This document shows positions 23,401-25,049 of a stretch of DNA of 32,000 nt, piece after piece; the first letter of the stretch is position 1; the number at the start of each line of letters is the position of its first letter. The position numbers were made by a program, and so were the translations under genes. A model generated the notes under the pieces. It did no database searches and was not told where the DNA came from. It saw nothing but the letters and a program-made list of their open reading frames with translations. The DNA comes from Pyrococcus furiosus DSM 3638 (GTDB taxonomy: Archaea > Methanobacteriota_B > Thermococci > Thermococcales > Thermococcaceae), in NCBI RefSeq assembly GCF_000007305.1, contig NC_003413.1, positions 707,318 through 739,317 of the forward strand. Direction: 5' to 3'.

Positions 23401-24470
23401 TCAGGGCCCCCTGTTACTTTCTGACATCCTTACTAGCTCTTCGACAAATTTTCTACTTTCATTGTACAGTACAGGGCTAGTGTTTATGTACAGGCAGATC
23501 TCACATATTGATGATACTCCGGGGGGAAGCGCAAATTTTCTGGACAGCTGGTGTACTAATCGCTCTGGATACCTCGTTAAAACATAAAGATAGGGATCAT
23601 TAACCATTTTTTCCACAATATCTGCAATATCCTCTTTGTACACGTTTCCATACTTAAGAAACTTTGACAGCTCACTGCCCGCACAGCAGGGTGTTACGTC
23701 CCCACTGCTTGTGATGGTTAAGTTCAGATTGTACCAGCACCCTCCTTGGAGTAACGGAGTAGGGCTTAAATATATTTCATCTTTTGGTATTCTCTCCCTG
23801 GCTCTTCCAATCCATGAGATTGGGGAGCTCGCTATTAAAAACCCCTCAATACTATCACCGAGCAATTTATATAGAAGATTCAACTTTTTTGTTTTTGTGG
23901 TTTGAACTCGTAGGATTGCCCCACTAACTAATTTCTCTTCCACTGTCTTTTTTAGGTTCTCAAGAACGTTTTTGTAATATTGTTTACCTAGACATTCAAC
24001 GTGGAAAGGGGTGATGGAAACTTCCACGTAGTCGGTGTACTCTAGTATCGGATCATAGAACTCTTTGTGTGTAAATAAATACCCATTAGTAACTATTTCA
24101 GTTTTGAACCCCAGCATTTTTGCAAATTTTAGAATCTTTATCAGATCCTCCTTGAAAGGGGGTAATGTTACTTCCCCACCTGCAATGCATACTTTCTTTT
24201 CGTTTAGATACCGGGTTAATGAGTGTGAAATCTTTTTTAGAACCGCTATGACTTTATCAACCTTGAGGGTCTGAGTTGTTTCAGGTGAACATGAGACGTA
24301 ACAGTGATTGCACTTAGCATTGCAACATCTGGTGTATTCAATGACTACACCATTAAACCTAACCTCTTTATAGGGCTTTGTGTCTGCATGGCGGGTTAAT
24401 GGTATTGTCTCACTTCTTTTTTTGTTTTTAATGTCCAGAAATGTGTGCCACCCCTGCTGGGAGGGAACAT
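23401..24470 (-). CDS. Radical SAM enzyme with a SPASM/twitch-like C-terminal domain; no in-frame start codon upstream of the catalytic motif
   Basis: The frame of tracked ORF 23401..24117 stays open upstream to about 24585. It contains VIEYTRCCNAKCNHCYVSCSPE (CxxxCxxC) and GGEVTL. The C-terminus has C-x11-G-x4-C (CWYNLNLTITSSGDVTPC) and CEIC. The only nearby ATG (24470) is in the +1 frame and joins through an A7 run at 24417-24423. Confidence 0.75.
24417..24423 (-). other. A AAA AAA (then G) slippery run that links the ATG at 24470 to the radical SAM frame by a -1 shift
   Basis: The minus strand reads aca aaa aaa gaa in the ATG frame. A -1 slip gives aga agt gag aca, which is the radical SAM frame. 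The zero frame stops 7 codons later. Confidence 0.4.
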
Positions 24471-24488
24471 GACAATAATCAAAAGGAT

Positions 24489-25049
24489 CTACGCTCCTCG
24501 ATATATACCAGTCCCACCGGGAAAGGAATAGATTAAAAAGCTCTTTTTTGCGTCGTTGCCCAATATCACAATCTGATTATATGAGCTGTTCAGGATATCG
24601 TTTTTTAAAATATCCCTTAGGTGTGGGTCTTTTCTGAGCAGAATGTTGCCCTCTCTGGAACCCGTCTGATGGAGAACAGATGAAAGCACTAAAGTTTTTT
24701 CAAGTAATTTATCCAAAACATCCTTATTCTCACACTTTAAATACACCCAGTAATCATATATCCAGGGACTAATGGGGGACAACAAGTCAAGCAACAAACT
24801 TCCCGCACTCTCAACGTCGGAATCTTTGAGGAGAGCCAGCCTATCATCGACAACAATTATGCAGGACTTTATTGAGCTTTTAGACATTGGAACCTTTGTC
24901 AGCCCAGACGTATTGATATGTGATTTCTCAATGAGCTGGTTAGAGTCTACTACAAGGTAGTCACTGTATTTCAAAACATCATAGTGCTCTTTGGGAAGAT
25001 TGAGCAGGGATCTTGGGCGGGAAATATAAAAGATTAAAAGGTCTTCCAT
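24489..25049 (-). CDS. Hypothetical protein (186 aa) of unknown function, second gene of the operon
   Basis: AGGTGA overlaps the stop codon of the upstream small ORF and lies 6 nt before the ATG at 25049. I see no recognisable motifs. Confidence 0.6.
   Translation of the reverse strand: MEDLLIFYISRPRSLLNLPKEHYDVLKYSDYLVVDSNQLIEKSHINTSGLTKVPMSKSSIKSCIIVVDDRLALLKDSDVESAGSLLLDLLSPISPWIYDYWVYLKCENKDVLDKLLEKTLVLSSVLHQTGSREGNILLRKDPHLRDILKNDILNSSYNQIVILGNDAKKSFLIYSFPGGTGIYRGA
24543..24549 (-). other. A AAA AAG heptamer in the zero frame of the upstream 186-aa gene; a -1 shift here also enters the radical SAM frame
   Basis: The minus strand reads gac gcA AAA AAG agc. The -1 frame from this point has no stop down to 23401. 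Confidence 0.35.

Follow-up and report, generated by a model that had tools for sequence, protein, structure and literature searches.

The stretch of DNA analysed here, referred to below as the window, comprises 32,000 nucleotides (nt) of the Pyrococcus furiosus DSM 3638 genome (NC_003413.1, positions 707,318 to 739,317) and carries on its minus strand two neighbouring genes, PF0736 and PF0735. These are very probably the two parts of a single 549-codon gene that was split by a very recent inactivating frameshift, in a decaying operon resembling those for peptides made on ribosomes and modified after translation (RiPPs), and they do not form a recoding device. The ancestral gene encoded an N-terminal α/β domain fused to an EpeE/YydG-like radical S-adenosylmethionine (rSAM)/SPASM domain, probably peptide-modifying, and in the lineage of P. 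furiosus DSM 3638 and COM1 a GGGG run has been shortened by one G (24515-24513, minus strand). When translation starts at the ATG at 25049, it therefore leaves the ancestral frame after ..SFLIYSFPGG and meets a stop 7 codons on, with the rSAM part stranded in the -1 frame and deprived of an initiation codon. The operon as a whole is a RiPP-like unit consisting of a small Ala/Val/Ile-rich peptide, its maturase, a membrane protein and an ATP-binding cassette (ABC) ATPase, in which the peptide gene has been deprived of its conserved N-terminus, probably earlier, by a separate deletion of one G from a run of six (G6 to G5); this would fit stepwise decay under relaxed selection.

The rSAM part occupies a minus-strand frame (codon first bases ≡ 0 mod 3) that is open from 24576 to a TGA at 23403-23401 and is preceded in frame by a TAA at 24579-24577. 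An earlier note on this DNA had the end of this frame right at 23401, but placed its start, at about 24585, too far upstream. The same note stated that there is no ATG, GTG or TTG ahead of the CxxxCxxC motif, and the mechanical list of open reading frames (ORFs; 23401..24117 on the minus strand) agrees, with none of these codons in the rSAM frame between the upstream stop and an ATG at 24117. The motif itself (CNAKCNHC, 24324-24301, minus strand), which lies in a match to PF04055 and is invariant in the family alignment, sits upstream of ATG 24117 and thus ahead of the first possible start. Since the rSAM part has no start codon, no independent protein should be made from it. PF0735 as annotated (23401..24117, minus strand; 238 amino acids, aa; P0022; PMC6640164 supplement) begins at this first in-frame ATG and is without the cluster motif, which the 2001 and 2019 annotations both cut off in this way. 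The two RefSeq models, P0016 (387 aa) and P0018 (313 aa), have first residues that correspond to ATT codons at window positions 24564 and 24342. None of the three annotations (RefSeq, 2001 or 2019) marks PF0735 and PF0736 as one frameshifted gene.

PF0736 (24489..25049, minus strand; product identical to P0014) is the truncated 186-aa N-terminal part. Its ORF (25052/25049..24489, 186-187 aa) lies in the frame ≡ 2 mod 3, from which a -1 shift is needed to enter the rSAM frame. Both frames are open over 85 nt (24492..24576, minus strand), an overlap bounded by the rSAM-frame stop at 24579-24577 and the zero-frame TAG at 24491-24489, and a -1 shift at any point within it would restore the full-length product. 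The truncated C-terminus reads SFLIYSFPGGTGIYR, and the last 6 residues of PF0736 (TGIYRG A, then the stop) are out-of-frame read-through past the deletion.

In the homology search the closest match, at 96% identity, was to P0001 of Thermococcus celericrescens, 549 aa long and named 'radical SAM/SPASM domain-containing protein', and the intact orthologues P0001, P0015, P0017, P0019 and P0020 are all 549 aa long and encoded by one uninterrupted ORF. The comparison covered 10 intact loci (L001-L009 and L023), from T. celericrescens and otherwise from metagenome-assembled genomes (MAGs) and run assemblies, and the uninterrupted 549-codon gene was found at 10/10 of them; the fusion of about 550 aa foreseen in the earlier note is thus the architecture of the ancestral gene. 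Across the junction the intact proteins P0015 and P0017 read ..ILGNDAKKSFLIYSFPGGDWYISRSVDPFDY.. (in a shorter stretch, ..GNDAKKSFLIYSFPGGDWYISRS..), while the zero frame of the window reads ..ILGNDAKKSFLIYSFPGGTGIYRGA followed by a stop (shorter, ..GNDAKKSFLIYSFPGG) and its rSAM frame reads ..WDWYISRSVDPFDY.. (DWYISRS.. from the break). Zero-frame homology continues 10 codons (SFLIYSFPGG) beyond a heptamer, A AAA AAG, that is considered below, and the change of frame falls between GG and DW.

DNA alignments with the intact loci place the 1-nt deletion, where homology switches frame, at the GGG run 24515-24513 (minus strand), 27 nt downstream of A AAA AAG. The alignment with T. celericrescens, which has GGGAAC at the deletion site, contains a single gap (window GGTGGG-ACTGG versus AGCGGGAACTGG), and the nine near-identical intact loci (L002-L009 and L023) have GGGG at the site and all read GGTGGGGACTGG. 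The G missing from GGGG is the only indel between the window and the intact loci across the 1,650-nt gene; for L006-L009 it is the only difference of any kind over that length, and for L009, a 2,977-nt run-assembly contig (SRR5099562), it is the sole difference over all 2,977 nt. The segment 23401..25049 (minus strand) is accordingly the remnant of one ancestral 549-codon gene, now PF0736 plus PF0735. A real inactivating 1-nt deletion had been among the possibilities raised in the earlier note; the kind of event was correctly anticipated, but the lesion is the change of GGGG to GGG and not one in an A-run. The ratio of non-synonymous to synonymous substitution rates (dN/dS) between T. celericrescens and MAG locus L006 comes to 0.24 for the whole gene and to 0.14 for its rSAM part, and low values between intact lineages identify the 549-codon frame as the selected unit. 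No homologue naturally split at this point was found in the homology search or in a scan of species-representative genomes, whose returns did not include P. furiosus or T. celericrescens and added one further intact locus, L023. We note separately that P0021 (116 aa, from a 2,081-nt NCBI contig) has the intact GGGG junction and changes frame just after K-N-K-K-R-S-E (..RSEDNTINPPCRHKAL, then a stop); this could reflect a 1-nt insertion near window position ~24410, either real or an assembly error.

The 186-aa PF0736 product is indexed in 57 blocks of the sequence collection, and the allele with three Gs (G3) is present in 10/10 of the contigs examined from these: the genome of COM1 (CP003685), one contig of a JGI metagenome, and eight run assemblies that belong to the ERR, SRR and DRR accession series. 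The same product has been deposited for three P. furiosus genome records (AAL80860; AFN03524, from COM1; and QEK78422, from the 2019 re-sequencing). The recurrence of G3 across independent assemblies shows that the deletion is real and not an artefact. The 2019 PacBio/Illumina re-sequencing lowered the P. furiosus pseudogene count from 74 to 53, and its re-annotation retains the split as PFDSM3638_03655 (238 aa), _03660 (186 aa) and _03665 (61 aa) (PMC6640164).

A second single-G lesion lies immediately upstream, in a precursor-like small peptide gene (25060..25277, minus strand) recognized from alignments with the intact loci, where it encodes a 72-aa peptide (MEEFAMYLEEMWGAPSGSKPNAIVAAIVAAAKAAAATSFVKSVAAGIVSGILAAAATKALSFEGISPINKLL) that starts MEEFAMYLEEMWGAPSGSKPNAIVAAIV... 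In the window a G6 run is reduced to G5 at 25243-25239, which disconnects ATG 25277 and the conserved leader MEEFAMYLEEMW from the body of the peptide and leaves a 61-codon ORF from a GTG at 25245. The YLE..WG motif of the lost leader is conserved in an 82-aa peptide encoded beside the Archaeoglobaceae homologue (MAKVETLATYLESAWGPP...). The peptide that goes with the 549-aa enzyme in T. celericrescens has 76 aa. L009 has the G5 lesion in common with the window and its rSAM gene stays intact, and the alleles form a series for the peptide gene and the rSAM gene respectively: the MAGs have G6/G4, L009 has G5/G4 and P. furiosus has G5/G3. Such a series suggests that the lesion of the peptide gene preceded that of the maturase, as in stepwise decay.

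Downstream of the rSAM gene are PF0734 (22282..23397, minus strand), a 371-aa polytopic membrane protein gene conserved beside it, and PF0733 (21377..22285, minus strand), an ABC transporter ATP-binding protein gene conserved in the operon. The order small peptide, fused rSAM protein, polytopic membrane protein and ABC ATPase is found in T. celericrescens, in Thermococcaceae MAGs and in an Archaeoglobaceae MAG, with a variant of it in Sulfurisphaera. No homologue of the EpeP peptidase was recognized in the Pfam and NCBIfam scans, a search for the TGM motif near the operon gave no match, and Rfam and tRNA scans of the window gave none either. The only literature that we found on PF0735/PF0736 is a TrmBL1 ChIP-seq (chromatin immunoprecipitation sequencing) listing, which treats the pair as an operon.

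Two observations weigh against a simple loss of function. There is no independent sign of decay in the sequence, with zero substitutions relative to L009, and we infer loss of function from the frameshift itself, since this is too recent for other marks of decay to have accumulated. In addition, the in-phase A AAA AAG heptamer inside the 85-nt overlap, with a chance of occurrence of ~0.03, leaves room for some leaky read-through.

It is this heptamer (24549-24543, minus strand; GCA AAA AAG in the 186-aa ORF) on which an alternative explanation rests, namely that leaky or programmed -1 frameshifting, taking place before the deletion is reached, yields a functional 549-aa maturase; we regard this as unlikely. 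The earlier note had put forward two A-rich heptamers as slippery sites, both in X XXY YYZ phase and both requiring a -1 shift, and this phasing was verified; a shift on A AAA AAG would join 169 and 380 codons to give 549. In the window ORFs of at least 150 aa, in-phase A AAA AAN occurs 8 times per 7,967 codons, so that the chance of at least one in the 28-codon overlap is ~0.03, or ~0.12 for any X XXY YYZ heptamer, and its presence inside the overlap is mildly unexpected. The product of a slip here would differ from the ancestral protein in only 10 residues, SFLIYSFPGG being replaced by ELFNLFLSRW, with the remainder of the 549 aa unchanged. In an AlphaFold model with a predicted local distance difference test score (pLDDT) of 75 the replaced segment lies at the end of the N-terminal domain and forms a β-hairpin, with strands at 171-175 and 180-184; after it come a helix and a low-confidence linker (215-226). 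With a segment at the domain edge replaced by one that is hydrophobic too, leaky rescue by slippage is physically conceivable according to this model.

Several observations speak against such slippage. The A-runs were compared in 21 sequences, namely the window, the 10 intact loci and 10 further P. furiosus-type contigs, and both the A6 run of GCAAAAAAG and a downstream A5-C-A7 run are the same in 21/21 (10 intact, 11 split). The A6 run encodes A-K-K in intact and split alleles alike; the heptamer is therefore older than the deletion and was not selected for rescue. None of the distant homologues in the family alignment has Lys-Lys at the heptamer position. The predicted stability of the 110 nt of RNA that follow is ordinary, with a minimum free energy of -25.8 kcal/mol versus -25.7 ± 3.1 kcal/mol for shuffled sequences (z = -0.04), and the predicted hairpin begins 1-2 nt past the heptamer and not at the usual spacing. 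At a programmed site homology would change frame at the heptamer itself, as well as there being an in-phase X XXY YYZ heptamer inside the overlap; the latter is present, but homology crosses A AAA AAG in the zero frame and switches only at the GGG run 24515-24513. A frameshifted arrangement is found at 0/10 of the orthologous loci and nowhere in the species-representative genome scan, and the substrate-like peptide gene of the same operon is truncated too. Slippage on this heptamer is lowered, in addition, by the tRNA-Lys(CUU) that archaea reserve for AAG. The view of the heptamers as programmed slippery sites is thus not upheld.

The heptamer is identical in sequence and phase to the A AAA AAG of Escherichia coli dnaX. 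In dnaX there is a Shine-Dalgarno-like element upstream of the site and a strong stem-loop downstream of it, and the shorter product is conserved, while the site of PF0736 has no unusual structure and is not conserved in distant homologues. The fucA1 gene of Sulfolobus solfataricus (A AAA AAT) is likewise divided into two ORFs whose overlap holds an A-rich X XXY YYZ heptamer, and a -1 shift there gives the full-length enzyme; its frameshift product has been shown experimentally, according to its citation in PMC3575233, whereas in PF0736 the change of frame comes only at the deletion, 27 nt downstream of the heptamer. If slippage did occur often enough to give a functional maturase, this would be the second archaeal frameshift mutation tolerated through slippage after Sulfolobus fucA1, and the first in a euryarchaeal hyperthermophile.

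The closest precedent is the P. furiosus chitinase PF1233/PF1234, which is split by a 1-nt insertion, removal of the base restoring growth on chitin (Kreuzer et al. 2013, PMC3575233). Those authors raised programmed frameshifting as an idea for the chitinase, citing fucA1 at ~5% efficiency, and left it untested (PMC3575233); this lends the slippage explanation above a certain precedent. As with the chitinase, one ancestral gene of the same organism has come to be annotated as two ORFs through a 1-nt indel, and the gene is uninterrupted in close relatives and otherwise highly conserved, as expected of a recent event. In the chitinase an A has been inserted, and each half has a start of its own and is expressed, whereas here a G is deleted and the downstream half has no start; the chitinase has also already been repaired, unlike PF0735/PF0736.

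A second alternative, which appears very unlikely, is that the G-tracts are reversible phase-variation switches for a toxic-peptide operon, or that the two halves are separate subunits made through non-canonical initiation. It is true that both lesions of the operon are single-G losses in G-runs, that three allele combinations exist (G6/G4, G5/G4 and G5/G3) and that the RefSeq 387-aa and 313-aa models map to the ATT codons 24564 and 24342. Tracts of four and six Gs are short for slipped-strand switching, however, and the P. furiosus-type contigs are 10/10 G5/G3 with no mixture. The ATT codons have no convincing Shine-Dalgarno match, none of the near-cognate start codons in the rSAM frame being associated with a match of more than 4 nt, and no homologue is naturally split here.

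A third alternative concerns the A7 run (24423-24417, minus strand), which forms part of AAA AAC AAA AAA AGA and lies in X XXY YYZ phase of a 24-codon ORF (MFPPSRGGTHFWTLKTKKEVRQYH, then a stop) opened by an ATG at 24470-24468 on the minus strand. Reinitiation at this ATG, followed by a -1 or transcriptional slip on A7, would give a 356-aa stand-alone rSAM protein; stand-alone relatives of 322-337 aa without the N-terminal domain are known (P0011-P0013), and the other window ORFs of at least 150 aa contain no A-run of seven or more. We nevertheless consider this route extremely improbable. The ancestral gene does not have ATG 24470 in frame, the sequence there being read TGT CAT GTT CCC (C-H-V-P, then S); the only Shine-Dalgarno-like sequence, GAGGAG, lies too far away, at ~24 nt upstream; A7 does not vary among the intact genes, in which it is part of the codons for K-N-K-K-R; and two rare events would be required in series. 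The related possibilities raised in the earlier note, that A7 is a sequencing error for A8 and that A8 would give a continuous gene from ATG 24470, do not hold, as A7 is native in 10/10 intact loci and that ATG is out of frame in them; since the intact genes would be disrupted by A8, a misread A7/A8 length is excluded.

Finally, the notion that the frameshift is a sequencing or assembly artefact and that the gene is intact in the organism is essentially already refuted, for although the lesion is in a homopolymer, a classic site of error, and the L009 contig is the same as the window save for its GGGG, G3 recurs in the COM1 genome, the JGI metagenome contig and eight run assemblies of different accession series, the truncated product is in three P. 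furiosus genome records, and the re-sequencing that lowered the pseudogene count retained the split.

A single gene inactivated by the deletion thus remains the preferred explanation, and the protein that it once encoded can be described from its intact relatives. The aligned full-length homologues (alignment A2) are fusions of 507-565 aa with an N-terminal domain of ~190-230 aa before the rSAM domain, and come from Thermococcales, an Archaeoglobaceae MAG (P0005), Sulfurisphaera ohwakuensis, Acidianus brierleyi and metagenome contigs. When the query is conceptually repaired it matches the Pfam families Radical_SAM (PF04055) and SPASM (PF13186). Its best NCBIfam match is to TIGR04078 (YydG radical SAM peptide epimerase; E = 1e-29) with 104 bits against a cutoff of 300, and membership of the EpeE equivalog family is not established. 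Eight cysteines are invariant in the family alignment, C243, C247 and C250 in the rSAM motif and C438, C455, C456, C516 and C519 in the C-terminal region.

Among solved structures, that of the Bacillus subtilis epipeptide epimerase EpeE/YydG (8ai1-8ai6; phmmer 1.6e-14) comes closest in sequence as well as in fold. The top nine Foldseek matches of the model (pLDDT 75) are all EpeE (E = 4e-16, template modelling score 0.80 on the target, root mean square deviation 3.4 Å), and the next fold is weaker by at least 10 orders of magnitude. Cys223 of EpeE, which is replaced in the deposited C223A structures, lies in a 'PCCS' motif that aligns to an invariant 'PCCAG', the numbering offset for this equivalence being taken from the chain alignment. 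Cys223 is the H-atom donor of EpeE. The two proteins thus have in common the CxxxCxxC motif and a C-terminal Cys-rich domain in which the cysteine aligning with Cys223 is invariant. They differ in that identity is only ~20%, there is an extra N-terminal α/β domain of ~190 aa, and Asp210 of EpeE aligns to an invariant Asn (N443 of P0001), although the pairwise alignment is locally uncertain at this point.

The N-terminal α/β domain has no family assignment in Pfam or NCBIfam, and a fold search against the PDB gave no significant match, with weak (β/α)-barrel-like similarities. The most divergent full-length homologue, P0010, contains a CxxxCxxC sequence (CHPGCSVC, residues 12-19) in this domain that is lost in other members, and the domain may therefore, judging from this motif, be a degenerate duplicated or second rSAM core.

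The operon logic is that of B. subtilis epeXEPAB (yydFGHIJ), with a small peptide, an rSAM enzyme, a membrane protein and an ABC transporter, although unlike EpeX the archaeal peptide is 72-82 aa long and rich in Ala, Val and Ile. The intact protein most likely abstracts the Cα-H from the adjacent Ala/Val/Ile-rich peptide, resulting in epimerization or a related modification, and by analogy with epeXEPAB the membrane protein and ABC system would then handle the peptide.

The DNA around the operon shows several further features. A second ABC ATPase gene lies downstream (window 19826-20642, minus strand) and encodes 249 aa both in L002 and in the window, where the match to the Pfam profile does not begin before position 61; the same gene in T. 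celericrescens (L001 10413-11305) is split into 70 + 227 aa, and at that place L006 (9838-10797) has an unrelated intact 319-aa gene and then two permeases. These differences suggest further indel decay in the region. The operon segment from ~25931 to ~21224 (to ~19700 in L002) is 98.8-99.97% identical to the Thermococcaceae MAG contigs L002-L009 and 96.7% identical to T. celericrescens, and the flanks of the MAG contigs outside it are 81-95% identical to the window; the sharp step in identity at 25931 suggests a recently exchanged island. The G+C content is 50-56% in blocks at window positions 1-7000, 10000-13000 and 16000-21000, 39-42% in the operon and 41-45% in the rest, which gives the window the look of a patchwork of Thermococcus-like and Pyrococcus-like DNA. 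The intergenic region that precedes the peptide gene (~25324, 25760-25764) is variable: a 19-nt tandem duplication (AAAAACTTAAATTCGTAAT) is present in six intact loci (L002-L005, L007 and L008) and is single copy in the window, and the 5 nt ATATC of the window intergenic region are absent from L005, L006 and L008. A segment of ~77 nt (25932-26008), overlapping a 44-aa SHOCT-like ORF (25892-26026), has no counterpart in the MAG loci.

The split is a further example of a type of event already known from PF1233/PF1234, and the proper annotation for PF0735/PF0736 is a single frameshifted gene. The RefSeq 313-aa and 387-aa models with ATT starts are artefacts of a forced start, and the A-rich heptamers do not belong among candidate recoding sites. 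The chief value of the finding is this correction, and its more useful by-products are the archaeal EpeE-like operon and the two lesions in G-tracts that could be repaired. As defined by the intact gene, the maturase is an EpeE-like rSAM protein of archaea with an extra N-terminal domain, encoded in a conserved peptide-maturase-membrane-ABC operon that is present in Thermococcales, Archaeoglobaceae and Sulfolobales; to our knowledge, archaeal RiPP pathways have been little explored. P. furiosus is genetically tractable, and two single-G insertions would be needed to make the peptide gene and the maturase whole again for study.

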